Source: Escherichia phage JLBYU31
Strand: one strand, 5' to 3'
Sequence record: OK272473.1
Length of the DNA stretch: 64,000 bases
Shown here: positions 20,127 to 58,993 of the stretch, piece by piece
Position numbering within the stretch: position 1 is the stretch's first letter
Layout of the letters: the number at the start of each line of letters is the position of its first letter
Made by a program: the position numbers and the translations under genes
Notes under the pieces: generated by a model
Database searches by the model: none
Told to the model about the DNA's origin: nothing
Seen by the model: only the letters and a program-made list of their open reading frames with translations

Positions 20127-20133
20127 TTTGTGT

Positions 20134-20187
20134 TCCTCATGTTATGTCAGTAAGATTACTATAACACAACACGAGGGACTTGTAAAC
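20134..20187. repeat. 54-bp perfect direct repeat, copy 1 (copy 2 at 35952-36005)
   Basis: Identical 54 nt at both loci, checked base by base. Confidence 0.9.
20158..20187 (-). promoter_or_regulatory. early promoter GTTTAC-N18-TATAGT with TGn extended -10 (minus strand)
   Basis: Matches T4 early promoter architecture; located directly after the stop of the upstream Alt paralog. Confidence 0.6.
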
Positions 20188-22244: not shown

Positions 22245-22247
22245 GAT

Positions 22248-24344: not shown

Positions 24345-24364
24345 ATCCTCTCTAGTGTTTATTC

Positions 24365-24372
24365 TATTTATA
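24365..24372 (-). promoter_or_regulatory. late promoter TATAAATA (minus) upstream of alt
   Basis: Plus TATTTATA 21 nt upstream of the alt ATG. Confidence 0.55.
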
Positions 24373-24377
24373 AAATT

Positions 24378-24395
24378 AAAGGCCCGAAGGCCTTT
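24378..24395 (-). terminator. hairpin AAAGGCC-YUCG-GGCCUUU at end of ligase operon
   Basis: 7-bp stem overlapping the stop of the 62-aa ORF, followed by AAUUUUAUAAAU. Confidence 0.6.
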
Positions 24396-24582
24396 AATAA
24401 TCTATTGGTAAGAGAGTACGATATATTTCAAACTTTGGACCTTTTTCATAGGCATCAAATGTTTCTGTGAATTTATTATAAGCATATGCATCTATAAATT
24501 CAATCATGATTTGTGATACAGAAGTAGAAACATCTCCACCTTCTTTTTGAGCCACGACAATTGTTTCTAAGTAAGCTTTCAT
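24394..24582 (-). CDS. hypothetical protein (62 aa)
   Basis: ATGA overlap with the ligase stop. Confidence 0.6.
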   Translation of the reverse strand: MKAYLETIVVAQKEGGDVSTSVSQIMIEFIDAYAYNKFTETFDAYEKGPKFEIYRTLLPIDY

Positions 24583-26042: not shown

Positions 26043-26308
26043 TGTTCATCCTTTAGAGTTTGGTTTACAGCTCTATTATAAATCAATTCATCATTAAGCT
26101 CAGTCAAAGACCTGTGGTACGTTGTTCTAACTTTATTTCCTTGCATCCAGTGCTTGACGTAAATGAAACCTTGCTCTACACATTTTTTAAAAATTCGTTC
26201 GTCTTTTTGAGCTCGGAATTCTGGATTGCATCTAAAAAATTGATTTACGTGACCGTAATCACGTGTAGTATTACCTTCATTTTCATAAATAGTGTGAACG
26301 ACAAACAT
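26039..26308 (-). CDS. hypothetical protein (89 aa)
   Basis: ORF with ATG, ATGA-coupled to ligase. Confidence 0.6.
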   Translation of the reverse strand: MFVVHTIYENEGNTTRDYGHVNQFFRCNPEFRAQKDERIFKKCVEQGFIYVKHWMQGNKVRTTYHRSLTELNDELIYNRAVNQTLKDEQ

Positions 26309-27144
26309 TAGAATGCTCCTTGGAAAATATTATCACCACTAGTAGGTCTATTATACAAATACTCTATGCCACCGGGTTTAATATAGTTCCATGTCTGAAA
26401 CGGATGCGTCTGATATGGATGATATGGATTATAAGGATTAAATCCAGGAGTTCTCCAGGTAGTATTCCAACGAAAAGAATCGTTTTTAATCATCTTCTCG
26501 ATTGCATCTTTTATAGCTTTTTCACTATCAAAACTTTCTTTATTTTCCTTCGATGGAAAAAGCTTATTCTCTACATCATTCCATGTATAAACTCGCTGTG
26601 CAGTTTTTGGAATACTGTCACGCTCCCCTCGAGCCATCCAATAAACAGGAACATTTAATATTTCACTCGCGTGATCGCAATGGTGAGCGAGATCGTCAAT
26701 ATAACAAATTACGTTATATTTCTCTTTTGCCTTTTTGAACAACTCTTCTTTTGAAGAATCATGACCACACATCAATACTTCTGAGAAGGCACCAGGAAAA
26801 AGAGCATTCAAATTAAATTGACGATTCAGCAGAGCGTCAATAGAATCACCCAATGCTGTAACAGCTACAAAATTATAATCTTCTTTTAATTTATTAATTA
26901 CACACAGGGCATCTTTATATGGAGACAAGTAACGAATAAAATCTGAACGATTGTATTTTTCAATTAACTTGACGCCAAGTTCTTCATCACAATTAAAAAG
27001 TTTACCTGGAGAAATAAATTTCTCATCTTGGATCATTTTTAAAATATGTTCCAACGGAAGATTATATTTCTGGGCAAAATAAGGAAGTCCTGATTGCCAG
27101 CTTAAACATACTCCATCAATATCAGTTAAAATAGTAGGCTTCAT
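26308..27144 (-). CDS. HAD-like hydrolase (278 aa), possible nucleotidase/phosphatase
   Basis: N-terminal motif ILTDIDGV (DxDG(T/V)) and downstream YIDD; Pro/Tyr-rich C-terminus. Confidence 0.55.
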   Translation of the reverse strand: MKPTILTDIDGVCLSWQSGLPYFAQKYNLPLEHILKMIQDEKFISPGKLFNCDEELGVKLIEKYNRSDFIRYLSPYKDALCVINKLKEDYNFVAVTALGDSIDALLNRQFNLNALFPGAFSEVLMCGHDSSKEELFKKAKEKYNVICYIDDLAHHCDHASEILNVPVYWMARGERDSIPKTAQRVYTWNDVENKLFPSKENKESFDSEKAIKDAIEKMIKNDSFRWNTTWRTPGFNPYNPYHPYQTHPFQTWNYIKPGGIEYLYNRPTSGDNIFQGAF

Positions 27145-27599
27145 AGAGAGTCTCTTAATAGGTTTAACACATCAATAAATTCAGCTTCGGTTAGTATTGT
27201 ATCATCTTTTGTTAGACCACTAGCCATGCTGTGCTTCAAAACTTTTCCTTTCGAGGCTAGTAATGCATCACGAAAGCCCTTGTTTTGAATCGCTGCTTCA
27301 AAATATGCATTTGTGTATAATTCTTTCCACGCCGGGGAGTATCTTGAAAACGGAACTCCGAGCCAGAAGAGGGTCCCACGGTCCTGAGCTCTTGCATAAG
27401 ACCTTCCAGCTTGCTGTGCGGCAAGCCCGGATAACCCAAATATACGACGTTGTTGTTCAACATTTTTCACCTTACACCCTTGGAGGAATCCTTCGAGACC
27501 TCCAAATTGAATACCATCCATGACGAAAGACCATTGGGCGAAATTACTTAATGCACATGATGGCCACCTAAAATTGCTTCTAATCTCTAACTCAGACAT
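27141..27599 (-). CDS. NADAR/YbiA-like (DUF1768-type) protein (152 aa)
   Basis: Motifs LSNFAQW and GLEGFLQGCK resemble YbiA FSNFAAW / SEHYFQAQK; track ORF started at TTG, first ATG at 27599. Confidence 0.5.
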   Translation of the reverse strand: MSELEIRSNFRWPSCALSNFAQWSFVMDGIQFGGLEGFLQGCKVKNVEQQRRIFGLSGLAAQQAGRSYARAQDRGTLFWLGVPFSRYSPAWKELYTNAYFEAAIQNKGFRDALLASKGKVLKHSMASGLTKDDTILTEAEFIDVLNLLRDSL

Positions 27600-27798
27600 T
27601 TTCAATGCTTATAATTTCAACATCAGCCCAATGACCATAGCAAGGAAGACGAAATTCAACTGGCCAGTTAGGGTCCTTTTCTAATATAATAGACTTAACT
27701 TGTGGTTCTTCATGTTCATCAGTATATGGATTTTTATCTGTTACTTTATATGTGACCTTAATGTACTGAATTCCAAAAATCTTATTAATTATGTTCAT
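27592..27798 (-). CDS. hypothetical protein (68 aa)
   Basis: ORF with ATG. Confidence 0.5.
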   Translation of the reverse strand: MNIINKIFGIQYIKVTYKVTDKNPYTDEHEEPQVKSIILEKDPNWPVEFRLPCYGHWADVEIISIENV

Positions 27799-27992
27799 AC
27801 TAATTCCTTTAATCCGTAAATAGGAGATAATTCATCACCCATGCGAAGGTCTTCATTTCCATCTACCCAGGAAACAATATAAGCCTCTTTTATTTGAATA
27901 CCACTCCATTTAAATGGAGGTAGAACCTTAGAAATTAATCCAGGTATACCAACTCCCTTTAATTCAACAGTTTGACCTAAAAAGAATTTCAT
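27795..27992 (-). CDS. hypothetical protein (65 aa)
   Basis: ORF with ATG, ATGA coupling. Confidence 0.5.
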   Translation of the reverse strand: MKFFLGQTVELKGVGIPGLISKVLPPFKWSGIQIKEAYIVSWVDGNEDLRMGDELSPIYGLKELV

Positions 27993-28279
27993 TAGAACCT
28001 CATCTGAAAACCGTGCGATTTAACATTACCGCCACCAATATCAGAGATATTAATTTCGCGCGCAATTGAAGGGTCAATGTCAATTTCACGATTGAGTTTA
28101 GTGATAGCTAAAGTATCGCGCCCATTTACAGTACGAAACTCTAAAGGACAAACCACATCAACGTAGTTTTTAATCGATTCGCTAGTAGGTTGCAAATGTG
28201 CAGGAAGGTCTTTAGGCGCCTTTGAGAAAACTACTTCGCAGAAGTTTTTACGGGTATCAAAATAAGTAGTCATAAACAT
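27992..28279 (-). CDS. hypothetical protein (95 aa)
   Basis: Track ORF begins at TTG 28330; first ATG at 28279 follows SD GAGGAA and lies downstream of an intergenic hairpin. Confidence 0.5.
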   Translation of the reverse strand: MFMTTYFDTRKNFCEVVFSKAPKDLPAHLQPTSESIKNYVDVVCPLEFRTVNGRDTLAITKLNREIDIDPSIAREINISDIGGGNVKSHGFQMRF

Positions 28280-28296
28280 AACATTTTCCTCAGTAA

Positions 28297-28310
28297 GGGG
28301 CCAAAGCCCC
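28297..28310 (-). other. intercistronic hairpin GGGGC-UUUG-GCCCC
   Basis: GC stem-loop between the stop at 28320 and the SD of the next ORF; no U-run. Confidence 0.45.
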
Positions 28311-28319
28311 TCATTTATT

Positions 28320-28685
28320 TTAAATATCAAATTCGTTAAGAACTACATCAAAGATTGCTTCAAGATGCTCAGGTTTAGCTCTGTTACTCAGAATATGACG
28401 AATCCAAGTTTTAACCAAAAGCTTGCGATTAACGCCATTCCAGCAAGGATGAGTCCCTAAATCGCGTTCACGGAAATCATCATCCAGAGCGATTTTAAAG
28501 TTGGAACCTTCCATCGTGATTGAAACCGTGATACCGTTTTCAAATCGCATATAAACGTAATTAGGAGTCATATACTGTTCAATTTCGCATACTGAACCAT
28601 TTTGATGTTTCCAGAGGCAAATAGTATCAATAGAACCTGCAATACCATTAGAAACATATTTACGTTCAAAGTTGATGTAGTTCAT
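28320..28685 (-). CDS. hypothetical protein (121 aa)
   Basis: Track start is TTG 28697; first ATG 28685 preceded by GGAG. Confidence 0.55.
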   Translation of the reverse strand: MNYINFERKYVSNGIAGSIDTICLWKHQNGSVCEIEQYMTPNYVYMRFENGITVSITMEGSNFKIALDDDFRERDLGTHPCWNGVNRKLLVKTWIRHILSNRAKPEHLEAIFDVVLNEFDI

Positions 28686-28721
28686 TTTATTCTCCAAGAT
28701 GTTTAATTGCGGTACAGGTAT

Positions 28722-28750
28722 ATAATATCATATCCTGTACCAAAGTAAAC
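28722..28750 (-). promoter_or_regulatory. early promoter GTTTAC-N17-TATTAT (TGa extended -10), embedded in 8-bp inverted repeat GGTACAGG/CCTGTACC
   Basis: Read on minus strand upstream of the ORF starting at 28685. Confidence 0.5.
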
Positions 28751-28752
28751 AA

Positions 28753-29085
28753 TTATTTTACTACTTTCCAATGCTGCATGTCAAGTTTACCAACTTTTTT
28801 CATCTTCTCAATTAAGCGTTCGGCACGTTGGCGAGCTGTAACATAATACCATTCACCTAATTCATTTTGTTCAATTTTTCCAACGATTACTGTATTCAAT
28901 TCATAAATCCAACCAGTAAAGAAATTATGAACTTGAATTGTAAAGGTGAAATCTGTTCCCATACCTTCTGTTGTTTCTACTTCAATAATATCACCTTCAA
29001 CTGCCATTAAGAACCACATAGTTTCATCATATTTACCATTGAAGCATTTAGTTTTAACTGTAGCGTTCAGATTAATCGTTTTCAT
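28753..29085 (-). CDS. hypothetical protein (110 aa)
   Basis: ATG with SD AAGGAGAAT. Confidence 0.6.
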   Translation of the reverse strand: MKTINLNATVKTKCFNGKYDETMWFLMAVEGDIIEVETTEGMGTDFTFTIQVHNFFTGWIYELNTVIVGKIEQNELGEWYYVTARQRAERLIEKMKKVGKLDMQHWKVVK

Positions 29086-29112
29086 TTTATTCTCCTTTGT
29101 TTGTGTAAGATA

Positions 29113-29142
29113 ATACTATCACAAAGGAACCATACTGTAAAC
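29113..29142 (-). promoter_or_regulatory. early promoter GTTTAC-N18-TAGTAT (TGa extended -10)
   Basis: Located between the terminator at 29161-29190 and the ORF start at 29085. Confidence 0.5.
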
Positions 29143-29160
29143 AACTTTATGCAATCTTTG

Positions 29161-29190
29161 GAAAATAAAAAAGGACTCCCGAAGGAGTCC
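29161..29190 (-). terminator. hairpin GGACUCC-UUCG-GGAGUCC followed by UUUUUUAUUUU
   Basis: 7-bp GC stem with UUCG loop and long U-run on minus strand, 6 nt after the stop of the basic-protein ORF. Confidence 0.8.
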
Positions 29191-29195
29191 TCAAC

Positions 29196-29372
29196 TTATG
29201 CTTTCTGCTTACCAAAACGAGAAGCATCATCTCGAAGAACCGCACGTGCTCGGCGCATGATCTTCTCAACAGTTTGATTGATACGAGAGTTCGACCCACG
29301 CTTGTAGCCAGCGCGTTTAGAATCACCAACTTTCTTTTCAACTGCTTTCTTTGCTTTAGCTTGTTTTGCCAT
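29196..29372 (-). CDS. small basic protein (58 aa; K/R-rich)
   Basis: ORF MAKQAKAKKAVEKKVG..; second ATG chosen because of SD AAGAGAA; first ATG at 29414 also possible. Confidence 0.5.
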   Translation of the reverse strand: MAKQAKAKKAVEKKVGDSKRAGYKRGSNSRINQTVEKIMRRARAVLRDDASRFGKQKA

Positions 29373-29617
29373 TATAAATTCTCTTTTAAATGAAAATGCA
29401 GGACTTATTGGCATTGCCTGCGCAAGCCCTCAAGGGGAACATAGGTTTTTGGATATTTAACGACCAGGATAACCATAAACCCGTCATCATTCACATTCAA
29501 GAGGTACACCATAAAACTGCCGGGGTCTTAAAACTATAATGATTCGCAAATCATTAATCAGACAGTTCGACGGCTCCTCGATTTTAGCTCACACTAAGGC
29601 AGTGAATCTCCAATAAA

Positions 29618-29866
29618 TTACTTCAGTGTTACCACAAAGTGACGAACTGCTTTTCGTGCAGCAGAAGCCAGAGGCTTAGCATATTTAAGTTCATCTTTTT
29701 CCTGAAGCTCAGCAGCTAATGCAGTTTGAGCAGGATTCAGATGTTTGAAATAACGCAGGATTTCAAGAGCTTCGGCTTCAACATCAATAGATGCGCCATA
29801 GTTTTCGTGACCATTATTCCATGCGTTTCGTTGCAGTTCAAGAGCGTGTTGTAATTGTTTAATCAT
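29618..29866 (-). CDS. rIII: rIII lysis-inhibition accessory protein
   Basis: 82-aa ORF (same length as T4 RIII), position between gene 31 and the ligase island. Confidence 0.8.
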   Translation of the reverse strand: MIKQLQHALELQRNAWNNGHENYGASIDVEAEALEILRYFKHLNPAQTALAAELQEKDELKYAKPLASAARKAVRHFVVTLK

Positions 29867-30013
29867 TTAAAAATTCTCGTTAGAGATTAAAACTCGGTAG
29901 TCACGTTCTTCTGAATTTCATCTTCTTTCGACAGATCTCTCAGTTGTAGACTACCACATAGAATTGTTCGGTTAACTTATTATTCCGACACCCAATTCAT
30001 ATTATTATTTATA

Positions 30014-30349
30014 TCACTTATAAAGACACGGAATAGCTTTATAGTGACAAGTAACGAATTTTTGTTTAATTTCTTTTGGCTGCTTAAGACCCAGAGCTAC
30101 AAAAGGATGCGGAACATTTCGAATTTGACCAACTGGAAGAGAAGTCAAATCACCAACTTCGCAGAAACCTTCAGGAACATCAGGACCGACAGAGTGAACT
30201 ACACATAGTTCAGGAACTTCACCTTGAACACGTTTACCGATAATAAGTCCTGATTCTGTAACTTCTTCATCACCGGCTTGTGCAGGTTCAGAAACTAAAA
30301 TAACATATTCACCGACAGCACGAATTGGTAGCTGTTGTACTTCAGACAT
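30014..30349 (-). CDS. 31: GroES-like co-chaperonin gp31
   Basis: 111-aa ORF (same length as T4 gp31), N-terminus MSEVQQLPI; T4 position. Confidence 0.9.
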
Positions 30350-30379
30350 CGTTTTTCCTTTTTGTTAACAGATGAATTA

Positions 30380-30406
30380 ATAATAACAAATAATTCTTAA
30401 AGCATT
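30380..30406 (-). promoter_or_regulatory. middle promoter: MotA box AATGCTTTA + 12 nt + TATTAT upstream of gene 31
   Basis: MotA-box consensus and -10 on minus strand, 31-57 nt upstream of the gene 31 ATG. Confidence 0.5.
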
Positions 30407-30714
30407 TATTTACCAATAAATTGGAGTAAATGCTCAACTTTCATACCATTAACAGAAATCAATTTGTCAATAGAAAAACCTCGCCATGCACCAAGCTCAA
30501 CATCAAATACTGGAATCATGTCAGTAGATTCTTTCCGAGTAGATTCAGTCAATTTACCAGTTTGCATGGTTGGCATAAAGTCTGCATCGCGAGTACCTTT
30601 CATAGTACGAATAGTACCATCAGACTTTTCAAAAACTACGTTTGAAACACCCATGGACAGTTTAGTTTTCAAAATTTCACGAATTGCTACTTTCTGCTCA
30701 GTTGTCAGTTTCAT
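30406..30714 (-). CDS. hypothetical protein (102 aa)
   Basis: ORF with ATG. Confidence 0.55.
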   Translation of the reverse strand: MKLTTEQKVAIREILKTKLSMGVSNVVFEKSDGTIRTMKGTRDADFMPTMQTGKLTESTRKESTDMIPVFDVELGAWRGFSIDKLISVNGMKVEHLLQFIGK

Positions 30715-30951
30715 TTATTTACCTATCACAGTTTTAATATGAGTTGTTCCACGTTCTTTAAGGGTGGAAAGTAATTTTTGGCATTTTTCTAAATCAGATT
30801 TCCAACTATATGGTCTATCAATACTAGTCCAATCAGTTTTATAATACTGTTTCCATTTAGAGAAAAAATACTTCTTATACTCTACAGCAAATGAAATGTT
30901 CTCGTTAGAATAAGAACTAATTGCTGTGAGCTGTACCAAACGAAATTTCAT
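30715..30951 (-). CDS. hypothetical protein (78 aa)
   Basis: ORF with ATG, coupled to cd stop. Confidence 0.55.
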   Translation of the reverse strand: MKFRLVQLTAISSYSNENISFAVEYKKYFFSKWKQYYKTDWTSIDRPYSWKSDLEKCQKLLSTLKERGTTHIKTVIGK

Positions 30952-31532
30952 TATTCACCACAGAATTCGTTGATATTTTCCCAGTTTAACTTATTCAAGT
31001 TTTTCTTAGGAACATTAAACACTTCAATACCCGCATTTCGCAGAATATCATCCCAGCCAGGTTTATTTTTATCATATGTTTCACAATAAACCAGCTTTTT
31101 AATACCAGATTGAGCTATCGCTTTTGCACAATCTGGGCAAGGAGAAAGTGTTACATACATAGTAGCACCTTCAATAGAAGAACCATTTCGTGCAGCAAAC
31201 AAAATTGCATTTAGTTCAGCATGAATTTCATTTTTAGACGACCATTCCGAGTGAGCGCTACGGTGTTCTTTCGCCAAGACAAAGCGATCAGTTGAACCAA
31301 ATGATACGCATTCAGGCTTATGGCCTTGAATGATAGTATGTTTAGGCTTATTCAGCAACCAACCTTGCTCAGCAGCATAATCACAACAGTTCACACCACC
31401 AGCAGGTGAACCATTATATCCGGTAGAAATAATACGTCCATTCTTTTCAATTACTGCTCCTACCTTCCAGGAGCAACATTTTGATTCTTGTGATACTAAA
31501 TATGCAATTTGAAGTACTGTACTCGCTTTCAT
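30951..31532 (-). CDS. cd: dCMP deaminase
   Basis: 193-aa ORF with deaminase Zn motifs HAELNAI and PCPDCAKAI. Confidence 0.9.
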   Translation of the reverse strand: MKASTVLQIAYLVSQESKCCSWKVGAVIEKNGRIISTGYNGSPAGGVNCCDYAAEQGWLLNKPKHTIIQGHKPECVSFGSTDRFVLAKEHRSAHSEWSSKNEIHAELNAILFAARNGSSIEGATMYVTLSPCPDCAKAIAQSGIKKLVYCETYDKNKPGWDDILRNAGIEVFNVPKKNLNKLNWENINEFCGE

Positions 31533-31867
31533 TTCATAATCACCAGATAAGCAGATTTAGCAGTTTCAACACGATAAATTTCATGACGAAGTTTAGTTAT
31601 ACTTTTAATAACAGAACTAATTATATTCTGCCCATCTTTAAAGCGGTTTTTCTTATCAATAAAAATTGCGCCAACCATCTTTTTGTGAAGCTCAACTGGA
31701 TACTTCGTCACAATAATAGCATCATACACAGAAGGATGAATACTATTCACTAGAGTGTCATTCATTAAAGTTATTCTAATGAACTGTGCTGTGTCAGAGT
31801 CAAGCGCTCTATGATCGCCAGTATCATTTTCAAGACAATTATCAATTATATCAGTTAAATTCATCAT
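31529..31867 (-). CDS. hypothetical protein (112 aa)
   Basis: ORF with ATG, ATGA coupling. Confidence 0.55.
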   Translation of the reverse strand: MMNLTDIIDNCLENDTGDHRALDSDTAQFIRITLMNDTLVNSIHPSVYDAIIVTKYPVELHKKMVGAIFIDKKNRFKDGQNIISSVIKSITKLRHEIYRVETAKSAYLVIMK

Positions 31868-32100
31868 AGTACGCCATACACCCTTTGTGCTTCAACTAAT
31901 CCATCAAAATCCAATTTGAGATGTGTTATTTGGTCACCATCACCTGGATTCACAATTACTAATACTGAACGAGGAGTTTCGGTAATAACACGAACCGATG
32001 TTTCTGGAAATCGTTCAGAAACCTTATTTACCAATTCCTGAGCAAATAGTTTAACTTTTTCTTGGAATTCTTTAACAGTAATCGGTTTTTCACTTAGCAT
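31864..32100 (-). CDS. hypothetical protein (78 aa)
   Basis: ORF with ATG. Confidence 0.55.
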   Translation of the reverse strand: MLSEKPITVKEFQEKVKLFAQELVNKVSERFPETSVRVITETPRSVLVIVNPGDGDQITHLKLDFDGLVEAQRVYGVL

Positions 32101-32621
32101 GTTGATCCCAGCTCCTTACTTTCAACGTTTTTAACTAATTTGACAGAAACTAATTCAGCATCTTGAGTAATCATTACCGGGCCTTCTTCATACTCTTCAA
32201 GATATTCTAGAGCTTTCTTTTTAGCTTCTTCCTTCGTATCAGTTTGAGCATAGATATAGAACATACAACCAGTAATACCTACTACTTTCCACTTAATTTC
32301 TTTATCAGTTTTAATTTCAAATTTACTGATAGAGTCATCTTTTTGAACTTCTTCGAAAAAATAATATTCTGACATATAAGTAATTGAAAATAACGGGCTA
32401 TCTTTATAAGATTCGCCCATTACATCAACAGCTTTATACCAGCAGTCATCAATTTCACGTTTAATGCTAATAACATTTTTCGCAGAATCTATTTTTACTT
32501 TAAATGAATTTTCCCCAATAAACTTGGCAATTCGTTTATTAGCCCCGCAAGTTTCATTAAAAATATCTTTATATCCAGCTTTAAAGCGATAAACCTTATC
32601 TTCTTCAAACCATTTGCTCAT
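32094..32621 (-). CDS. hypothetical protein (175 aa)
   Basis: ORF with ATG. Confidence 0.6.
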   Translation of the reverse strand: MSKWFEEDKVYRFKAGYKDIFNETCGANKRIAKFIGENSFKVKIDSAKNVISIKREIDDCWYKAVDVMGESYKDSPLFSITYMSEYYFFEEVQKDDSISKFEIKTDKEIKWKVVGITGCMFYIYAQTDTKEEAKKKALEYLEEYEEGPVMITQDAELVSVKLVKNVESKELGSTC

Positions 32622-32683
32622 TTCAATTTCCTCATTTGTTTTGGTAGAGCTATAATATCACAACTCTACCGTAAAGTAAACTG

Positions 32684-32959
32684 TTAAATTGCCTTGAATT
32701 CTGATGTCTGTGATTCAAAACGAATATCGCCTTTGATGACTAGCTCAGCATCAAGACCGAATACGACAATGATATGTGCGGAACCTGGATACAGCGTAAT
32801 GGCAATAGAATCAACCTGGTCTGGAAGCAAAGTATTCAATACATGAGTCACTTGAGCATGAATTCGAAGCTCGGCTGCGTTATCAAGCTTTTCAAACATA
32901 TTATTAGCGATAATTTGGCTAAACACTACTTCTACGATTTTAGAATAAGTCGGAAACAT
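32684..32959 (-). CDS. hypothetical protein (91 aa)
   Basis: Track start is GTG 32965; first ATG 32959 preceded by SD GAGGTG. Confidence 0.5.
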   Translation of the reverse strand: MFPTYSKIVEVVFSQIIANNMFEKLDNAAELRIHAQVTHVLNTLLPDQVDSIAITLYPGSAHIIVVFGLDAELVIKGDIRFESQTSEFKAI

Positions 32960-32961
32960 AT

Positions 32962-33162
32962 TCACCTCACATAATTTTCTTCAAGCCAATTAATAACATC
33001 CAACGCATTATCAAAAGTTGAACCATCTACTATGTCTTCTGTTTCATAATCAAGAATATCTAAGTCTACTCTTCCATCAACAATAGGCCATAAACAAAAT
33101 AGATATTTCTTTTCTTTTTCAATTTTATCACAAAGTCGATAAATCTTTTCTATGTTATTCAT
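32962..33162 (-). CDS. hypothetical protein (66 aa)
   Basis: ORF with ATG. Confidence 0.5.
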   Translation of the reverse strand: MNNIEKIYRLCDKIEKEKKYLFCLWPIVDGRVDLDILDYETEDIVDGSTFDNALDVINWLEENYVR

Positions 33163-33351
33163 AAGTTTTCCATGGTAAAGGCAGTTTAGTTTTCTTTACT
33201 GTTAGTTCAATATCAGGATTCTTTTCTCTTAATTTAAGGCATTCCTCCCAAGCTCTGATTTCACTAGTGAATACACAAAATTGCCCATTACTAGTACCAA
33301 CTAAACCACTATTTACAATAACAATAGACCAAGTTTCATGATGCCACGCCA

Positions 33352-33352
<1 letters not shown>
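33155..33352 (-). CDS. hypothetical protein (65 aa)
   Basis: ATG at 33352 overlapping the pseT stop (TAATG); alternative ATG at 33382. Confidence 0.45.
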
Positions 33353-34573
<1,221 letters not shown>

Positions 34574-34577
<4 letters not shown>

Positions 34578-34804
34578 TTATTTTTCTCAACCAATGATTG
34601 AATATAATCATGTAGGTCTTTAGATGCTTTACCCCACTTATTTTGGTATTCATTTTTAAGATTAGCACGTGATTGAGCTAATAAAACATCATTAGTTGGA
34701 GGTAAAGATTCTAACCGCTGAATCTGGCGTCCATAAATCATTGCAGCCATCTCGGATTCATAAATCAATCCTTTGAGATGTTCAAATTGATGCCACGAAA
34801 TCAT
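34574..34804 (-). CDS. hypothetical protein (76 aa)
   Basis: ORF with ATG. Confidence 0.55.
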
Positions 34805-35100
34805 TTACATTTATCCTCTTTTAACTCTTGACGATAATAACATATCATAGTTTTCTGGTCATGTACATATCGTTTTACATCATTAAGCCAAATACGAAAT
34901 TCCTGAGAATCTTCAAATGGCATACCGACCCAAGCTTTACCATCAATAACTTTAACTTGCCAAGATAGTTTAGCTTCGTCATATGACTTTATTTGCACAG
35001 GCCAATTAGGATGAACTGTTTCTTTCTTTACTTCTAGAGGCTTTGTAGAACAACCAACTAGAAGACCAATAGATAATATTACTGCTGATAGTTTAATCAT
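34801..35100 (-). CDS. o-spanin (outer-membrane lipoprotein, Rz1-like)
   Basis: Signal peptide with lipobox LLVGC-S (MIKLSAVILSIGLLVGCS); 4-nt overlap with upstream i-spanin. Confidence 0.65.
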   Translation of the reverse strand: MIKLSAVILSIGLLVGCSTKPLEVKKETVHPNWPVQIKSYDEAKLSWQVKVIDGKAWVGMPFEDSQEFRIWLNDVKRYVHDQKTMICYYRQELKEDKCK

Positions 35101-35450
35101 TTAGAAAGGTCCTGGATGTCTTCTGTGAACTTGTTGAAGGAGTTGTTGATTTGTTTTTCAACCAATCCTGGCTTATGAGCCACCACATCCGCCTTCTTTG
35201 CGTCTTTGCGCAGTTTTTCATTTTCACGCTCAATAGCAGCAATTGCCTCACGATTTTTATTATTCATCGCATCAATATAATTATACTGAATTCGCAAATT
35301 ATTTAATGCTAAAGCGTTTTCATTGGCCGTTTTTGTAATTTCTACAACAGACGTTTCTAATCTTTCAATTTTATTTTTTAAAATTAAAGAAGTTCCGCCT
35401 AATGCAATTACAATTAATAGCAAGCCTGCTGTCGTATTACTTAATTGCAT
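35097..35450 (-). CDS. i-spanin (inner-membrane, Rz-like)
   Basis: N-terminal TM segment TAGLLLIVIALGGTSLIL followed by charged coiled-coil region. Confidence 0.65.
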   Translation of the reverse strand: MQLSNTTAGLLLIVIALGGTSLILKNKIERLETSVVEITKTANENALALNNLRIQYNYIDAMNNKNREAIAAIERENEKLRKDAKKADVVAHKPGLVEKQINNSFNKFTEDIQDLSK

Positions 35451-35947
35451 AAAGTTTTAATAACCTCTATAATATCGTCTTGAGAAAGACCGTTAATTAA
35501 AATATGATGTTCAGCCGGAGATTTAGAAATTTTAAAGCATGCCTCAACATCTTCTGCCATATCCGATGCGCTACGATTTGGATTACTAATTCCAAGACGA
35601 TGTTTTCCCGTTAAAGGATTAACGATGATATAGCATTTACAGTTGTTAATATGAACATTAGGTTGAGTCTGATTAATGAACACATCACAATCATATTTCG
35701 CAAGCTGATTTTCTAAAAAGACTTTCATCTCCTCAACCGCATCAGGAAGCATATCACGGGCTTGCTCAAGACGACGATTTCGATATTCTTTAATGGTCGT
35801 TTTCCGCTTGACTTGCTTAGCTAAATCTTTCTTAAGATCGGTGATATATCCAACTCGACGATTTCCTTTAAATACAGAAATCCCATCTGTAGTATCACCG
35901 TATGCTTCAACGACCATCTCAGTAGTAATAAGCTGCAAATCCATCAT
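35441..35947 (-). CDS. alc: Alc, host transcription unfolding/termination protein
   Basis: 168-aa ORF at T4 alc position between pseT cluster and rnlA; preceded by early promoter. Confidence 0.7.
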   Translation of the reverse strand: MMDLQLITTEMVVEAYGDTTDGISVFKGNRRVGYITDLKKDLAKQVKRKTTIKEYRNRRLEQARDMLPDAVEEMKVFLENQLAKYDCDVFINQTQPNVHINNCKCYIIVNPLTGKHRLGISNPNRSASDMAEDVEACFKISKSPAEHHILINGLSQDDIIEVIKTLCN

Positions 35948-35951
35948 AAAG

Positions 35952-36005
35952 TCCTCATGTTATGTCAGTAAGATTACTATAACACAACACGAGGGACTTG
36001 TAAAC
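35952..36005. repeat. 54-bp perfect direct repeat, copy 2 (copy 1 at 20134-20187)
   Basis: Identical 54 nt. Confidence 0.9.
35976..36005 (-). promoter_or_regulatory. early promoter GTTTAC-N18-TATAGT upstream of alc
   Basis: Within the 54-bp repeat; SD GAGGA 5 nt before the alc ATG. Confidence 0.6.
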
Positions 36006-36008
36006 AGC

Positions 36009-37596
<1,588 letters not shown>

Positions 37597-37604
37597 AATA
37601 AAAT

Positions 37605-37618
37605 GGGCCTTGCGGCCC
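37605..37618 (-). other. hairpin GGGCC-GCAA-GGCCC between nrdB and denA
   Basis: GNRA-loop GC hairpin followed by AUUUUAUU; sits in the false N-terminal extension of the track ORF. Confidence 0.5.
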
Positions 37619-37623
37619 ACTCC

Positions 37624-38802
37624 TTAAAAATATTTTTTAAAACTCATCATAACTTTATCATCAACATCATTATCAATCTGTGCAACAAGGTAAGATGACA
37701 GTTCTACTTCTTGCGGCGCGGATTGAACATTATCAGAATTAAGGTATTCACGAATCCAAGGATATGGATGTTTAACCGGAGCATCGGTAATTGGGCATGG
37801 AAGACCGCACTGTTTCATACGAGATACAGTTAAGTAATCAATAAAGCTCCACATGCTATTTGTATTTAATCCAGGAACATCGCCATCTTTAAATAAATGA
37901 ACTGCCCAATCTTTTTCTTGGCGGTTAACTTCCATGAAAATATCAACTGCTTCTTGTTCACACTCTTTGGCAATTTTAACCCATTCATCACCATCAGTGC
38001 CAAGTTGAAGTTGACGAATAATATATTGAGTGCCTTTAAGGTGAAGCTGCTCATCACGTGCAATGAACTTCATAATCTTGGCATTACCTTCCATGATTTC
38101 CATATTCTTGTGGAAGTTAAAGGTACATGCAAAAGATACATAAAAACGAATAGCTTCCAATGCGTTGATTACGTGCAGGCAGAGGTAAAGAGAGCGCATT
38201 AGTTCACGTTTCCAATACATTTCATGCTCTATGGCATCTTCAATAACGTCTTCGTCTGCATTAATTTCTTTTTGGTATTCGATATCAGCTTTAGCGTTTT
38301 CCCAATAACGAGTTTTAATCAGAACATCATCATAATAACGTCCAATGGATTCAGCTCGTTTCATGATTGCTTCGTCTAATACAATCTCATCAAATACCTT
38401 TGACGGGTCAGTATAAAGATTTCGCATGATATGGGTATATGAACGACTGTGAATAGTTTCACTAAAAGTCCATGTAGCAACCCATGTATCAAGGCTTGGG
38501 TCTGAAATTAATGACATAAGTACAGCAGACGGCGCACGACCCTGAATGCTATCTAGAAGTGATTGATACTTCAGGTTGTTAGTAAAAATATCTTGCTGAT
38601 ATTGAGGAAGCTTGTTAAATTGCGCAGCATCCATCATTAAGTTTACTTCTTCAGGGCGCCAGAAAAATGACAACTGCTTTTCGGTTAAATCTTCAAAAAC
38701 TTTATGACGTTGAATATCATAACGCGCAATACCAAGACCTGAACCAAAAAACATAGGTTCTTTTAAAACATCAACTGGATTTGTATTAAAAACTGTAGAC
38801 AT
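37624..38802 (-). CDS. nrdB: ribonucleotide reductase small subunit NrdB (uninterrupted)
   Basis: 392 aa from ATG 38802 with SD AAAGAGGAAA (track began at TTG 38838); ferritin-like R2 sequence; continuous reading frame. Confidence 0.9.
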   Translation of the reverse strand: MSTVFNTNPVDVLKEPMFFGSGLGIARYDIQRHKVFEDLTEKQLSFFWRPEEVNLMMDAAQFNKLPQYQQDIFTNNLKYQSLLDSIQGRAPSAVLMSLISDPSLDTWVATWTFSETIHSRSYTHIMRNLYTDPSKVFDEIVLDEAIMKRAESIGRYYDDVLIKTRYWENAKADIEYQKEINADEDVIEDAIEHEMYWKRELMRSLYLCLHVINALEAIRFYVSFACTFNFHKNMEIMEGNAKIMKFIARDEQLHLKGTQYIIRQLQLGTDGDEWVKIAKECEQEAVDIFMEVNRQEKDWAVHLFKDGDVPGLNTNSMWSFIDYLTVSRMKQCGLPCPITDAPVKHPYPWIREYLNSDNVQSAPQEVELSSYLVAQIDNDVDDKVMMSFKKYF

Positions 38803-39533
38803 TAATTTTTCCTCTTTAAAATTCTGCCGCGTTTCCAACCTGGCGGTATAATATCATCTTTACCTATAAGCGTGCATTCACTTCCATTATTAATCCATTT
38901 CTTACCGCGGATTCCTTTATAATCTCTTGGTTGTATTTTATCAAACTTTGCATCAAGTTGATATGACCATCTAAATCCATAGGCATATTGAAATTTACCC
39001 TCAGCACAATATTTGATATTTGACCCGTTTCCATTAACTGACCTGGACGCTGCCGCAATAGAGTGAAAGGTTTCTATGAAATCCCCATCTAATGAGAATT
39101 TATGTATTTCGATAGATGGGCATGCATACCTATTCACGTTTGATACATGTTGTTTAGTTTCGTTTTTATGATGCTTGCCTAACATTCCTCTAGGATGAGG
39201 ATTATTTTTCCAATATTTCTTAAAGAAATCAGAATTAGCTTTAGCAAATAATTTTCTGTGCAAGCTATACAATCTGTTATTAATTCTATTACCAGCTTTA
39301 TCTGTTGCCATTAACGTTAACGCAGAGGCAAGCCCAAAATGGCCTTCATTTATCTTACATAGTAATAGATGCGCTATAAAATGTTCTCTAGCTGTTAATT
39401 CAACTAAATTTTCTTTATCATCAGAACCTCCCATGCATTTAGGGACTATATGATGTGTCTCTTTATATTCAGATAAAGGTTCCCGAGCCTGAGCTCGGGA
39501 AATTAGGTCATTATAGATTTTTTGATAATTCAT
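38802..39533 (-). CDS. mobE: free-standing HNH homing-endonuclease-like protein (MobE-like)
   Basis: HNH motif HHIVPKCMGGSDDKENLVELTAREHFIAH; inserted between nrdA and nrdB; start overlaps nrdA stop and stop abuts nrdB start. Confidence 0.75.
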   Translation of the reverse strand: MNYQKIYNDLISRAQAREPLSEYKETHHIVPKCMGGSDDKENLVELTAREHFIAHLLLCKINEGHFGLASALTLMATDKAGNRINNRLYSLHRKLFAKANSDFFKKYWKNNPHPRGMLGKHHKNETKQHVSNVNRYACPSIEIHKFSLDGDFIETFHSIAAASRSVNGNGSNIKYCAEGKFQYAYGFRWSYQLDAKFDKIQPRDYKGIRGKKWINNGSECTLIGKDDIIPPGWKRGRILKRKN

Positions 39534-41797
39534 TACAATTTACACGCTGCACAATCATCGGCTTTAGGAGTTTCTATTTCATAATCATCAGTACCAGAAC
39601 CATCACGGGTATTATGATAATAGAAATTTTTAATGCCATAATACCATCCGTATAGCATGTCATCAATCATTATTGACATTGGAACCTTGCCTTTAGGGAA
39701 GATTTGGGGGTCATAGTATGTATTCGCCGAAGCTGATTGACAAACCCATTTCAGCATAATAGCTACCTGCGTAAGATAAGGTTTATTACCTTTCTTAGCT
39801 AATTTCCATGTATAATCATAGAGGTCTATGTTATGCTCAATATTGGGCACGACTTGATTAAAGGAGCCCTCTTTTGATTCTTTAACAGAGACTGGTCCAC
39901 GTGGAGGCTCGATACCGTTTGTACTGTTAGAAACTTGGGAAGATGACTCACATGGCATAAGTGCTGATAATGTGCTATTACGGATGCCAAAGAGCTTAAG
40001 GTCTTCCCGCAGCGACGACCAGTCACAAACGTATTTTGGAGCTGCGATTTGGTCAATCTTTTTATTGTACCAGTCGATAGGTAATTCGCCTCGAGACCAA
40101 CGAGTGTCTGAATAATATTCGCAAGGTCCTTTTTCTTTGGCGAGCTTAATGGATGCTTTAATGAGTCCATACTGTAATCTCTCAAATAGTTCATGTGTTA
40201 AATCGTTAGCATCTTCATAAGAAGCAAAGTTACTTGCCAGCCAAGCTGCATAGTTAGTAACACCTACACCGAGGTTACGACGCTTTTTAGCTTTTTCTGC
40301 TTCAGGAACTGGATATCCTTGGTAATCCAAAAGATTATCAAGAGCACGAACTTGAACTTCTGCTAATTCATTAATTTTATCTTGGTCTTGCCAATCGAAG
40401 TTATCCAGCACAAATGCAGATAACGTGCACAATCCAATTTCAGCATCAGGACTATTCACATCATTTGTTGGAATAGCAATTTCACAGCACAAGTTACTCT
40501 GACGAATAGGTGCCTTTTCACGAATAAACGGAGTATAGTTATTCGTATTATCAATGAACTGTACATAAATCCTTGCTGTTCCTGAGCGTTCAGTCATGAG
40601 CAATTCAAATAGTTCACGGGCTTTAATACGCTTTTTACGAATATTAGGGTCTTTTTCTGCTGCTTCGTATAATTCACGGAAACGGTCTTGGTCTTTAAAA
40701 TAAGAATAATAAAGCTCGCCACCCATTTCATGCGGACTGAACAAAGTAATGTAATCGTTCTTTCCGAATCGTTCCATCATCAAATCATTCAGCTGAACAC
40801 CATAATCCATATGACGAATGCGGTTTTCTTCTACGCCTTTGTTATTTTTCAAAACGAGAAGATTTTCAACTTCCAAATGCCAAATAGGATAATAAGCAGT
40901 AGCAGCGCCGCCACGAATTCCACCCTGTGAACATGATTTAACTGCAGTCTGAAAATGTTTCCAAAAAGGAATAACACCGGTATGGCGTACTTCACCCATG
41001 CCAATCTTAGAACCTTCGGCACGAATCATACCAACGTTAATACCAATTCCAGCACGTTTGGAGATATATTCAACAATTGAAGCGGAAGCCTTGTTGATAG
41101 ACTTTAATGAATCACCTGCCTCAATAACAACGCATGAACTAAACTGCCGAGTTGGAGTACGGCAACCAGCCATAATAGGAGTTGGCAATGAAATCTGTCG
41201 AGTAGATACTGCTTCATAAAAACGGATAACGTGTTTTAATCTATCAACAGGTTCATCTTGATGCAATGCCATTCCAATAGTCATAAATGCAAACTGTGGA
41301 GTTTCATAAATTTGACCAGTGGTTTTATCTTTAACTAGATATTTTTCTTTTAATTGCATCGCCCCGGAATAAGTAAATTCCATATCCCGCTCGTGCTTAA
41401 TTTTTGATTCTAAAAATGTAATTTCTTCTGCTGAATATTTTGACAATAATTCAGGGTCATATTTACCTGCATTTACACAATAAGAAATATGGTCAATAAA
41501 TGAACGTGGTTCATATTGTCCGTAAACATGCTTACGAAGAGCGAACATTAAACAACGTGCAGCTACATATTGATAATCAGGCTCTTCAACCGAAATAGAA
41601 TTCGCAGCAGCCTTAATGACAATAGTCTGAATATCATCAGTTGTCATTCCATCACGGAGATAAGATTTAATATTTTCATATAATTCATAAGGATCTACTG
41701 ATGTTCCTTCAGCTGCCCAAGATAAAACTTTAATAATTTTTTGTGGGTCAAAGCTCTGAGAAACACCACTACTTTTGATAACATTAATTAATTGCAT
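39533..41797 (-). CDS. nrdA: ribonucleotide reductase large subunit NrdA
   Basis: 754-aa ORF with NxCxE active-site motif (SNLCCEIA) and C-terminal Cys pair CAACKL. Confidence 0.95.
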   Translation of the reverse strand: MQLINVIKSSGVSQSFDPQKIIKVLSWAAEGTSVDPYELYENIKSYLRDGMTTDDIQTIVIKAAANSISVEEPDYQYVAARCLMFALRKHVYGQYEPRSFIDHISYCVNAGKYDPELLSKYSAEEITFLESKIKHERDMEFTYSGAMQLKEKYLVKDKTTGQIYETPQFAFMTIGMALHQDEPVDRLKHVIRFYEAVSTRQISLPTPIMAGCRTPTRQFSSCVVIEAGDSLKSINKASASIVEYISKRAGIGINVGMIRAEGSKIGMGEVRHTGVIPFWKHFQTAVKSCSQGGIRGGAATAYYPIWHLEVENLLVLKNNKGVEENRIRHMDYGVQLNDLMMERFGKNDYITLFSPHEMGGELYYSYFKDQDRFRELYEAAEKDPNIRKKRIKARELFELLMTERSGTARIYVQFIDNTNNYTPFIREKAPIRQSNLCCEIAIPTNDVNSPDAEIGLCTLSAFVLDNFDWQDQDKINELAEVQVRALDNLLDYQGYPVPEAEKAKKRRNLGVGVTNYAAWLASNFASYEDANDLTHELFERLQYGLIKASIKLAKEKGPCEYYSDTRWSRGELPIDWYNKKIDQIAAPKYVCDWSSLREDLKLFGIRNSTLSALMPCESSSQVSNSTNGIEPPRGPVSVKESKEGSFNQVVPNIEHNIDLYDYTWKLAKKGNKPYLTQVAIMLKWVCQSASANTYYDPQIFPKGKVPMSIMIDDMLYGWYYGIKNFYYHNTRDGSGTDDYEIETPKADDCAACKL

Positions 41798-55381: not shown

Positions 55382-58300
55382 ATGGCTACTTTAAAACAAA
55401 TACAATTTAAAAGAAGCAAAACTGCAGGTCAACGTCCTGCTGCTTCAGTATTAGCCGAAGGTGAATTGGCTATAAACTTAAAAGACCGTACTCTTTTTAC
55501 TAAAGATGACTCGGGAAATATTATTGATCTAGGTATTGCTAAAGGCGGTCAAATTGATGGAAATGTAACTATTGATGGAACTTTACGCGTCAATGGACCA
55601 ATAAACAACTTTGGAAATTTTTCTACAAGTGGTACTATTACGGCAAGTAATATTGTTTCTGCTACAGTATTCAGATCAACATCCGGTTCATTTTATACAA
55701 GAGCAATAAATGATACTGCAAATGCCCATCTTTGGTTTGAAAATACAAATGGATCAGAACGTGGCGTTTTATATTCAAAACCGCAGTCTGAAAATGAAGG
55801 CGTAATTACAATGCGTGTTCGTCAAGGAACCGCTGCGGGAGCTCAAAATTCAGAATTTCATTTCATTTCTACTGATGGCGGTATCTTCCAGGCACGTAAG
55901 TTAACTGCTTTAACTTCTATTAGTACACCAACTATTAGTGTTAATTTAATTAATCATGATTCTAAATCATTTGGACAATACGATTCACAATCTTTGGTTA
56001 ACTATGTTTATCCTGAAACCGGTGAAACAAATGGTGTAAACTATCTTCGTAAAGTTCGCGCTAAGTCCGGTGGTACAATTTATCATGAAATTGTTACTGC
56101 CCAAACAGGCCTGGCTGATGAAGTTTCTTGGTGGACTGGTAATACACCATTATTTAAACTATACGGTATTCGTAACGACGGTAGAATGATTATCCGCAAT
56201 AGTTTGGCCATTGGTACTGTGACACAAGGGTTTCCGTCAAGTGATTATGGCAATGTTGGGGCACTAGGAAATATATTTCTTGCTTTAGGTGATAATGGAA
56301 CTGGTCTAGTTTATAGAAAAACCGGGGTATTTGATTTCGTTGGTTCTGGTTTATCTTTGGCATCTATTACTCCTGATAGTTTCCGTAGTACTCGCAAAGC
56401 AATATTTGGACGCTCAGAAGACCAAGGTACAACATGGACAATGCCTGGAACGAACGCTGCCTTTTTATCAGTTCAAACACAGGCTGATGAAAACACTGCC
56501 GGAGACGGCCAGACGCATATTGGCTATAACTCAGGCGGAAAAATGAACCACTATTTCCGTGGTAAAGGCAAAACTAATATTAATACTCAGGAAGGTATGG
56601 AAGTTAATCCGGGTATTTTGAAATTGGTAACTGGCTCTAATAATGTAATGTTTTATGCTGATGGCGGTATTACATCTGTTAAGCAGCTTTCAATATATAA
56701 TGGCATATATTTAGCAGCTAATAATTCTACTGCTGGGCTAACATTCGCTCCAACTACTACAATTGATGGCACTAAGCAAATTTTGTGGGAAGGCGGTACT
56801 CGTGCTGGTCAGAATAAAAGCTACGTAACTGTTAAAGCATGGGGTAATTCATTTAATGCATCTGGCGATCGTGCTCGTGAAACAGTTTTTGAAGTATCAG
56901 ATGGACAAGGATATTATTTTTATTCACAGCGTGTGGCTCCAAGTGGCTCTGAAACTACTGGGCCTGTTGTAACCCAGTTCAATGGACAAGTTAATGCTAG
57001 AGGAAGTATTATTACTGACGGAAGTTTTAAAGTTAATGGATTAAGCACTTTAGTCGGTAATGTTACCATGTCTAATGGTTTGTTTGTCCAAGGTGGTTCT
57101 TCTATTACTGGACAAGTTAAAATTGGCGGAACAGCTGATGCATTAAGAATTTGGAATGCTGAATACGGGGCTATTTTCCGTCGTTCTGAAGATAAGCTTT
57201 ATATTATTCCAACTCCACAGAATGCTGGTGAATCAGGTGGTATTTCTAATTTACGTCCGTTCTATATTACATTAAGTAATGGTAAAGTTTCCATGGATCA
57301 TGATGTAGATATCGGTGGAGGTAGATTTAAAGTAGAAGTGGCTGGAACTACTGCTAATCAACGCATAACAGTAAATATGGCATCAGATGCTATTAGAATA
57401 AATGCTCCAACACAAGAGTCTTCTAACTTCATTCAAGGACGTAAAGCAGATGTTCCGAAATGGTATTTAGGTATTGGCGATGGCGGAAACGTCGTTCGTA
57501 TGCATAGTTACACCCATTCACATGGTATTGCATTAAACTCTGATACTGTCGATATTACTAAGCCTCTTAAAGTCGGAAATGCCCAACTAGGAACTGACGG
57601 TAATATTACCGGTGGTTCAGGAAACTTTGCTAATTTAAACAGTACAATTGAATCATTAAAAACCGATATTGTTTCAAGTTATCCTATTGGAGCTCCTATT
57701 CCATGGCCAACGGATACTCCTCCTGACGGTTACGCTATTATGGAAGGCCAGACTTTTGATAAGTCTGCATACCCAAAATTGGCTATGGCTTACCCATCTG
57801 GCGTAATTCCAGATATGCGCGGGCAAACTATTAAAGGTAAACCAAGTGGTCGAGCTGTATTAAGCGCAGAAGCCGATGGTGTTAAGGCTCATAGCCATAG
57901 TGCATCGGCTTCAAGTACTGACTTGGGTACTAAAACTACATCAAGCTTTGATTATGGTACTAAAACATCTTCAAGCTTTGATTATGGTACTAAGACTAGT
58001 AACACCACAGGAAACCATAATCATACAGTGAGTGGTAATACTAGTTCCGCCGGTGCGCACCAACACAACGAAGGGACGTATTTTTCATCGTACAGATACT
58101 TTATGAACGGATACAATACTCGCCAGTCATCGGGAGCTGCCATCGAAACATCCAATAGACAAGGCATAGCGTTTTATGGTAAAACCTCTAGTGCTGGTGC
58201 CCACACTCATAGTTGGTCAGGAACCACGAGTACTACAGGTAACCATGCTCATACTGTAGGTATCGGTGCTCATACCCATACTGTAGGTATCGGTGCTCAT

Positions 58301-58414
58301 ACCCACATGGTAGCAATTGGCTCGCATGGTCATACTATCACTGTAAATAGTACAGGTAATACAGAAAACACGGTTAAAAACATTGCTTTTAACTATATCG
58401 TTCGTTTAGCATAA
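55382..58414 (+). CDS. 37: long tail fibre distal subunit gp37 (receptor-binding tip with His-box repeats)
   Basis: 1010-aa ORF, N-terminus [24 protein letters not shown]; C-terminal HxH repeats ([33 protein letters not shown]). Confidence 0.92.
57926..57996. repeat. 30-bp tandem repeat x2.4 inside gene 37 (peptide GTKT(T/S)SSFDY)
   Basis: ggtactaaaac..tcaagctttgattat repeated head to tail. Confidence 0.7.
58253..58306. repeat. 27-bp tandem repeat x2 inside gene 37 (peptide TVGIGAHTH)
   Basis: actgtaggtatcggtgctcataccca(t/c) twice in tandem. Confidence 0.7.
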
Positions 58415-58418
58415 GGAG

Positions 58419-58434
58419 AGGGGCTTCGGCCCCT
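58419..58434 (+). promoter_or_regulatory. gene 38 split ribosome-binding site: hairpin AGGGGC-UUCG-GCCCCU between SD AAGGAG and AUG
   Basis: SD-like AAGGAGAGG lies ~25 nt upstream of the gene 38 AUG with a UUCG hairpin between, the arrangement described for T4 gene 38. Confidence 0.6.
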
Positions 58435-58441
58435 TCTAAAT

Positions 58442-58993
58442 ATGAAAATATATCATTATTATTTTGACACTAAAGAATTTTACAAAGAAGAAAATTACAA
58501 ACCGGTTAAAGGCCTCGGTCTTCCTGCTCATTCAACAATTAAAAAACCTTTAGAACCTAAAGAAGGATATGCAGTTGTATTTGATGAACGTACTCAGGAT
58601 TGGATTTATGAAGAAGACCATCGCGGAAAACGAGCATGGACTTTTAATAAAGAAGAAATTTTTATAAGTGAAATTGGAAGCCCGGTTGGTATAACTTTTG
58701 ATGAGCCTGGCGAATTTGATATATGGACTGATGACGGTTGGAAAGAAGACGAAACATATAAGCGAGTTTTAATTCGTAATAGAAAAATTGAAGAATTATA
58801 TAAAGAGTTCCAAGTTTTAAATAATATGATTGAAGCTTCTGTCGCCAATAAAAAGGAAAAATTTTATTATAAAAACCTTAAGCGGTTCTTTGCTCTTTTA
58901 GAAAAGCATGAGCATTTAGGTGGTGAATTCCCTTCATGGCCTGAAAAAGAACGGAAACCTTGGTATAAGCGTTTATTCAAGCATTACGTATAA
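58442..58993 (+). CDS. 38: gp38, tail-fibre assembly chaperone (T4 type)
   Basis: 183-aa ORF, N-terminus MKIYHYYFDTKEFYKEENYKPVKGLGLPAHS as in T4 gp38. Confidence 0.9.
   Translation: MKIYHYYFDTKEFYKEENYKPVKGLGLPAHSTIKKPLEPKEGYAVVFDERTQDWIYEEDHRGKRAWTFNKEEIFISEIGSPVGITFDEPGEFDIWTDDGWKEDETYKRVLIRNRKIEELYKEFQVLNNMIEASVANKKEKFYYKNLKRFFALLEKHEHLGGEFPSWPEKERKPWYKRLFKHYV

Follow-up and report, generated by a model that had tools for sequence, protein, structure and literature searches.

Gene 37 of this phage carries two tandem repeats of different unit length within a run of HxH motifs, and the question arises whether these repeats are independent sites of slippage that change the host range, as a reading of the sequence alone had proposed, or parts of the fibre tip whose number is set by the fold. 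The gene is located at 55382..58414 in the window, the whole 64-kb stretch of DNA that was analysed; it is encoded, like all features described below, on the plus strand and codes for the long tail fibre distal subunit of 1010 aa. Its earlier naming as gp37 was borne out by 63% identity with T4 gp37 over the full length and by matches to the Pfam families Collar and gp37_trimer. The latter places the trimerisation region at aa 670-744, and the core of the collar (knob, D10) was found at aa 770-817 (57689..57832; PF07484, E 1.8e-11), where it aligns with the collar of the T4 tip structure 2XGF. Downstream, an ORF of 183 aa (58442..58993) has the length and the position of T4 g38, which is annotated in T4 as tail fiber assembly, and its DNA deviates from T4 g38 by only 0-3 mismatches per 60 nt. 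A Pfam search with gp38 found no family. This ORF is taken to be gene 38, encoding a T4-type fibre assembly chaperone and not a T2-type adhesin. It is followed by an ORF of 218 aa, which gives the order of the T4 genes 37, 38 and t. Judged from this arrangement, the locus encodes a distal fibre of the T4 type and not of the T2 type, with a g38 chaperone downstream and the adhesin within gp37 itself.

The sequence-only reading had given a length of 1026 aa for T4 gp37, which is correct, and had derived a difference in the tip from the slightly smaller length of the present protein. This argument runs the wrong way, and a shorter tip was rejected as the cause of the length difference: the tip comprises 271 aa compared to 242 aa in T4 and, thus, is 29 aa longer. 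The full-length alignment revealed that the shaft lacks about 45 aa of the length it has in T4 gp37, in the region of aa ~640-740, and it is for this reason that the whole protein is shorter despite its longer tip.

That the T4 fibre ends in a needle held together by iron bound to HxH motifs is textbook knowledge. The stem of this needle is formed by residues 882-931 and 960-1009, the tip subdomain by residues 932-959; the chain reverses its direction after reaching the tip, and the needle binds seven irons along its length (PMC9603124; PMC6957217). The needle has a length of 20 nm and all mapped host-range and receptor mutations of T4 fall within residues 932-959 (PMC9603124). In Bas63, the number of HxH motifs tracks the length of the needle (PMC12609058).

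A phmmer search matched the C-terminal 271 aa of the protein (aa 740-1010) with the T4 gp37 tip (PDB 2XGF, chain residues 2-242, E 1.4e-97) and, as far as a sequence match of this strength can tell, it is certain that the structural family is that of the T4-type gp37 receptor-binding tip with the 2XGF fold. Eight HxH motifs are present, at aa 837, 879, 893, 941, 955, 964, 973 and 982. All seven HxH motifs of T4 (883, 915, 929, 966, 980, 989 and 998) have a counterpart among them, leaving one extra motif at aa 973-975 (58298..58306) which falls into a 9-aa gap in the alignments with 2XGF and T4 and is predicted to be an eighth metal site. The interpretation of the HxH array as a metal-coordinating T4-type tip, made before any database search, is therefore upheld by the alignment. 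Mapping of the T4 stem (882-931 and 960-1009) onto the protein gave an outgoing, descending arm of 60 aa (aa 836-895, 57887..58066) with the HxH motifs 837, 879 and 893 and three 10-aa GTK units, and a returning, ascending arm of 59 aa (aa 935-993, 58184..58360) with the HxH motifs 941, 955, 964, 973 and 982. Between them lies the head, the receptor-contacting "tip" subdomain, with 39 aa (aa 896-934, 58067..58183). In T4 the two arms have 50 aa each, and the segment between the third and the fourth HxH motif, which includes a head of 28 aa, is shorter and, by alignment, unrelated to the one found here.

Apart from the head, the only gaps in the alignment with 2XGF were insertions of 10 and 9 aa, and the same gaps were seen with full-length T4 gp37. 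Parsing into units assigned them to the two arms: the outgoing arm contains three 10-aa units (57926..58015) compared to two in T4, the extra one following a stretch of 10 residues, and the returning arm contains three 9-aa HxH units (58244..58324) compared to, again, two in T4, the extra one reading VGIGAHTHT. Since two of the 9-aa units are nearly identical, the decision as to which copy is the "extra" one would be arbitrary at the level of the sequence. Near-identity to T4 extends over the collar, the two arms of the stem and the last 40 aa of the protein, and a T4-type g38 downstream is likewise shared. At the DNA level, divergence from T4 amounts to 15-28 mismatches per 60 nt and is limited to 57945-58300, dropping to 0-3 mismatches per 60 nt beyond 58305. 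The extra units and the unrelated head agree with the earlier expectation that the tip differs from that of T4. An AF2 model of the monomeric tip, calculated from an alignment of 35 sequences, had a mean pLDDT of 49.6 and a pTM of 0.20 and was too poor to be used.

The two tandem repeats are found precisely in these units. Tandem Repeats Finder (TRF) detected a 30-bp unit repeated 2.4 times at 57926-57998 (86% match, score 118) and a 27-bp unit repeated 2.1 times at 58250-58305 (100% match, score 112), which are the two best-scoring tandem repeats of the window; none of the others exceeds a score of 59. Both are in frame with the ORF, so that the in-frame tandem repeats described by the sequence-only reading could be confirmed. 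The 30-bp repeat encodes the first two 10-aa units and the start of the third (a repetitive peptide of 23 residues and more, from aa 849) and the 27-bp repeat lies within the three 9-aa units (18 residues from aa 958); the former is thus located on the outgoing and the latter on the returning arm, ~325 bp apart, and the head contains neither of them. The two copies of the 27-nt unit are identical in 27/27 positions and form a perfect tandem of 56 bp. When synonymous codons were re-drawn from the codon usage of gp37 itself and the peptides were kept, a mean of only 22.1 matches was obtained (P about 7e-4), and for the 30-nt copies, which are identical in 27/30 positions, the mean was 22.0 (P about 0.013). 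Copy identity is therefore higher than expected from synonymous choice, the DNA repeat exceeds what the peptide repeat gives, and a mere by-product of the repetitive peptide was rejected as the full account of the DNA repeats. High copy identity was also seen in other Tequatrovirus alleles, with 30/30 for the other unit in allele L005, whereas adjacent 27-nt units of distant prophage fibres were identical in only 16-20 of 27 positions. Such near-perfect identity indicates a recent duplication or a conversion between copies. It would not be needed by a purely structural account and is compatible with a length polymorphism that is still active.

Close relatives were found with the same and with a different number of units. 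Over the tip, DNA identity is 99.6% with Citrobacter phage PhiZZ6 and 99.0% with Shigella phage JK45, and in both the tip has the same length, the same repeats and the same head. PhiZZ6 is essentially identical to the sequence analysed here from about 56880 through g38 into t, but the whole gene 37 is only 94.8% identical because the 5' two-thirds of the gene are mosaic. The 27-bp unit contains one base that is polymorphic among the three phages, being C/C in the two copies here, A/C in PhiZZ6 and A/A in JK45. Citrobacter phage PhiZZ23 has the same head and the same 14-residue steps between HxH motifs, but falls short by 57 nt: precisely one unit of 30 bp and one of 27 bp are missing together, leaving seven HxH motifs. 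Repeat number does differ among relatives, in agreement with the sequence-only reading. Directly 5' of the 30-bp indel in PhiZZ23 a patch of nine mismatches was found, with identity on either side. At least for this indel, and as judged from the sequences, the patch speaks for a recombination event involving a third allele more than for simple slippage. Citrobacter rodentium DBS100 was the isolation host of both PhiZZ6 and PhiZZ23, which came from UK river water, and the number of units is therefore not decisive for infectivity on that host; a literature search for the receptors of the two phages found nothing. In the comparison with teqhad, similarity ends on either side of the head with the innermost HxH motif. 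More distant relatives are the side tail fibre tips of lambdoid and other enterobacterial prophages (PF07484 and PF03335), which are 55-70% identical and have the same plan of collar, stem, head and stem but other shafts and other heads, and whose adjacent units are far more diverged in DNA than those found here.

The loss of two units at once in PhiZZ23 is one case of a rule that holds in all complete tips examined. For the survey, the best 120 of 2480 matches among proteins clustered at 90% and the best 150 of 1886 matches among representatives at 50% identity were used, together with 80 loci from viral contigs and the phage records of PhiZZ6, JK45, PhiZZ23, teqhad and T4, and the distances between successive HxH motifs were listed for each complete tip. 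The distances are 42, 14, 48, 14, 9, 9 and 9 here and 32, 14, 37, 14, 9 and 9 in T4. With n as the number of 10-aa and of 9-aa units and m as the number of 14-residue steps per arm, all complete tips among the matches listed follow one formula, 12+10n, 14 x m, head, 14 x m, 9 x n, where n is 3 and m is 1 in the present protein and n is 2 and m is 1 in T4. Among the matches listed there were 213 unique complete tips in which the 10-aa and the 9-aa units vary in step, n ranging from 1 to 6. A first distance of 32 was always accompanied by two 9-residue steps (101 tips) and a first distance of 41-42 by three (101 tips); the rarer forms combined distances of 22 with one step (1 tip), 52 with four (7 tips), 62 with five (1 tip) and 73 with six (1 tip). 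Likewise, the number of 14-residue steps was equal on both arms in 213/213 of the listed tips, amounting to none in 101, one in 110 and two in 2. The rule also holds for the prophage side tail fibres, and all 84 parsed DNA loci obey it. A seeming exception, P0219, turned out to be a parsing artefact: one HxH motif had been lost, and on visual inspection the tip conforms to the rule; sequences rejected by the parser were truncated, frameshifted or in accordance with the rule.

No change of a single arm was found in the 213 unique listed tips, and no unmatched form was present among 98 further complete members of ten large clusters, in a sample that consists mostly of E. coli prophage fibres clustered by identity and through which rare unmatched variants within phage populations would slip. 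When the heads of the matches listed were clustered at 70% identity, 5 of 81 clusters contained more than one architecture, the same head being combined with different unit numbers and the same stems with different heads. To explain these clusters, at least six independent changes of architecture are required. In one of them m changes and in another n jumps from 3 to 5, and every one is matched between the arms; the coupling, therefore, is more than a result of shared ancestry. A strict matching of the arms is what the hairpin topology of the chain would lead one to expect, and no statement of such a rule was found in the literature consulted.

Taken together, we consider it probable that the two repeats are the complementary halves of one extra rung in the stem of the gp37 needle. 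The trimeric stem would be a six-stranded needle, in which every chain descends from the collar as far as the head and then returns, and which is stapled by metal held by the HxH motifs, and one rung would consist of ~10 residues on the way down (GTKxxxxFDY) and ~9 residues on the way back (HxHxVxIGx). The present tip would have three rungs instead of the two of T4, along with one pair of 14-residue His-bearing steps and the 39-aa head. The additional rung is predicted to provide an eighth metal site, compared to the seven of T4, and, given a 20-nm needle with T4 arms of 50 residues, each rung may lengthen the stem by roughly 2.5-3 nm. Chain topology and covariation suggest that the two extra units lie next to each other in the folded trimer. 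The number of rungs varies only in a matched manner, presumably because a fibre with unequal arms could not fold, and unmatched forms would then be inviable. The rung is slightly asymmetric, as 10 residues are added on one arm and 9 on the other. Since all mapped host-range and receptor mutations of T4 fall at 932-959, it is most likely the head, bounded by the innermost HxH motifs, that determines receptor specificity, and relatives exchange this segment as a cassette.

The original proposal, according to which each repeat is a hot spot of slippage or unequal exchange on its own and copy variants are the main source of host-range variation, appears very unlikely in comparison, although a number of observations agree with it: the 56-bp tandem is perfect, the DNA similarity between copies exceeds in both repeats what the peptide demands, copy number differs between PhiZZ23 and the group of PhiZZ6, JK45 and the present sequence, and the C/C, A/C and A/A pattern in the 27-bp unit fits an exchange between copies. 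In addition, Tetart et al. 1996 (J Mol Biol 258:726) reportedly obtained duplications in T4 linked to conserved His-containing motifs of the C-terminal adhesin encoded by gene 37, with an expanded host range. The host-range changes of that work are said, in the papers that cite it, to be G938V, R954S and A955T; by these accounts they are situated in the head, whereas the repeats described here are in the stem. Evolution experiments with T4 are reported to have given point changes within residues 932-959, Y953 being an example, and no repeat changes. The idea of independent slippage is contradicted by the 10-aa and 9-aa units changing together in every complete homologue examined. The repeats as a likely source of host range fare no better, as they map to the stem and not to the "tip" subdomain in which the T4 mutations lie, and as PhiZZ6 (n=3) and PhiZZ23 (n=2) have the head and the isolation host in common. 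A slipped-strand contingency locus was also rejected, as the units are 30 and 27 bp long, are present in about two copies and are always in frame, and as only coupled differences at two sites were seen, among the 213 unique listed tips and the 98 further cluster members, where copy variation in a single tract would be expected. An independent, slippage-driven role in host range is thus not supported, and the feature is not a demonstrated host-range switch.

Two further explanations concern the forces that maintain or generate the repeats. The repeats and the His boxes might serve as patches of homology that flank the head, so that heads are swapped by recombination and changes in rung number arise as by-products of crossovers out of register. 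The use of conserved adhesin motifs as crossover points for head exchange is an older idea, put forward by Tetart et al. 1996 and 1998 as far as their work is summarised in PMC3157838, and the confinement of divergence to the region between the stem repeats in the comparison with T4, and between the innermost HxH motifs in the comparison with teqhad, fits such exchange. The nine-mismatch patch next to the PhiZZ23 indel, and the occurrence of one head with several rung numbers and of one stem with several heads, agree with it as well. Its breakpoints, however, are deduced from a handful of alignments and not from crossovers observed directly, and on its own it leaves the constant matching of the arms unexplained; it is compatible with the extra rung and not an alternative to it. 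We put the chance that homology patches are the right description at slightly less than even. Alternatively, needle length itself could be an adaptive, recurrently toggled trait, the paired perfect repeats being kept as a length switch with two sites. Coordinated unequal exchange on both arms would then reset n and tune the reach of the head through LPS, O-antigen and capsule, and the matching of the arms would be a selective filter that leaves only double events visible. The coupled changes of architecture, the span of n from 1 to 6, the unusually high copy identity in the Tequatrovirus alleles compared to distant prophage fibres and the recovery of one head in a phage with n=2 and in a phage with n=3, both from samples of one kind, could be read in favour of such a switch. 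Nevertheless, every toggle would need a double event, and the common isolation host of both forms argues for neutrality on that host; a length switch is, therefore, rather unlikely in our view.

The preferred reading, an extra rung built from both repeats, has its main consequence beyond this phage. For fibre tips of the T4 and lambda type it offers a simple and apparently exceptionless rule, from which annotators can read the number of metal sites to expect and which tells engineers that the stem would be changeable in length only through matched units on both arms, with the head between the innermost HxH motifs as an exchangeable specificity cassette. PhiZZ6 and PhiZZ23 would serve as a natural isogenic pair with which the effect of needle length on adsorption becomes a clean experiment. 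For the present gp37 the finding matters little since its tip is of a known type, and a near-identical allele is already deposited in GenBank, so that the feature is, by sequence, an ordinary variant of a well-known structure. Compared to PhiZZ6 and JK45, two substitutions are specific to it, namely G905R, which is located in the head, and T976M, which belongs to the stem.

[quoted passage not shown] Over its whole length it is 94.8% identical to that of Citrobacter phage PhiZZ6; its 5' part (55382-56880) is divergent from PhiZZ6, and from about 56880 on the two are nearly identical. Shigella phage SHBML-50-1 matched 65% of the gene with 98.8% identity. At the genome level, a 20-kb query (20000-40000) retrieved Escherichia phage JLBYU24 as the best match in the phage collection (98.4% over 99% of the query), and no genome identical to this Tequatrovirus was found there with that query.

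Comparison of the tips revealed that only two residues set the window apart from all of PhiZZ6, Shigella phage JK45 and the protein homologue P0001: G905R (58094-58096), within the head segment, and T976M (58307-58309), just after the seventh HxH motif. Since single substitutions in the T4 head alter receptor use (PMC9603124), G905R could have a functional effect.

The gp37 tip of the viral-contig relative L005 (IMGVR_UViG_2706795401_000001) contains two 30-bp units that are identical (30/30), whereas its 27-bp units match at 23 of 27 positions, the reverse of the window with respect to which repeat has the higher copy identity. Homogenisation has thus affected different repeats in different lineages. 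Among the protein homologues, some extreme stems had five (P0183) or six (P0216) 9-residue steps between successive HxH motifs, or two 14-residue steps per arm with ten HxH in total (P0017); in all three, the outgoing and returning arms were matched in step number.

A ninth HxH of gp37 (THSHG, 57515-57523, aa 712-714) occurs within the shaft, at a position upstream of the segment that corresponds to the solved T4 fragment, and is a candidate additional metal site; it aligned to VHYHG in T4. Between the stop codon of g37 and the start codon of the chaperone gene g38, adjoining the g38 ribosome-binding site, lies a C(UUCG)G-type hairpin (GGGGC-TTCG-GCCCC, 58420-58433) with a folding energy of -15.6 kcal/mol (z -2.7), which is also present in T4, albeit with one C less.
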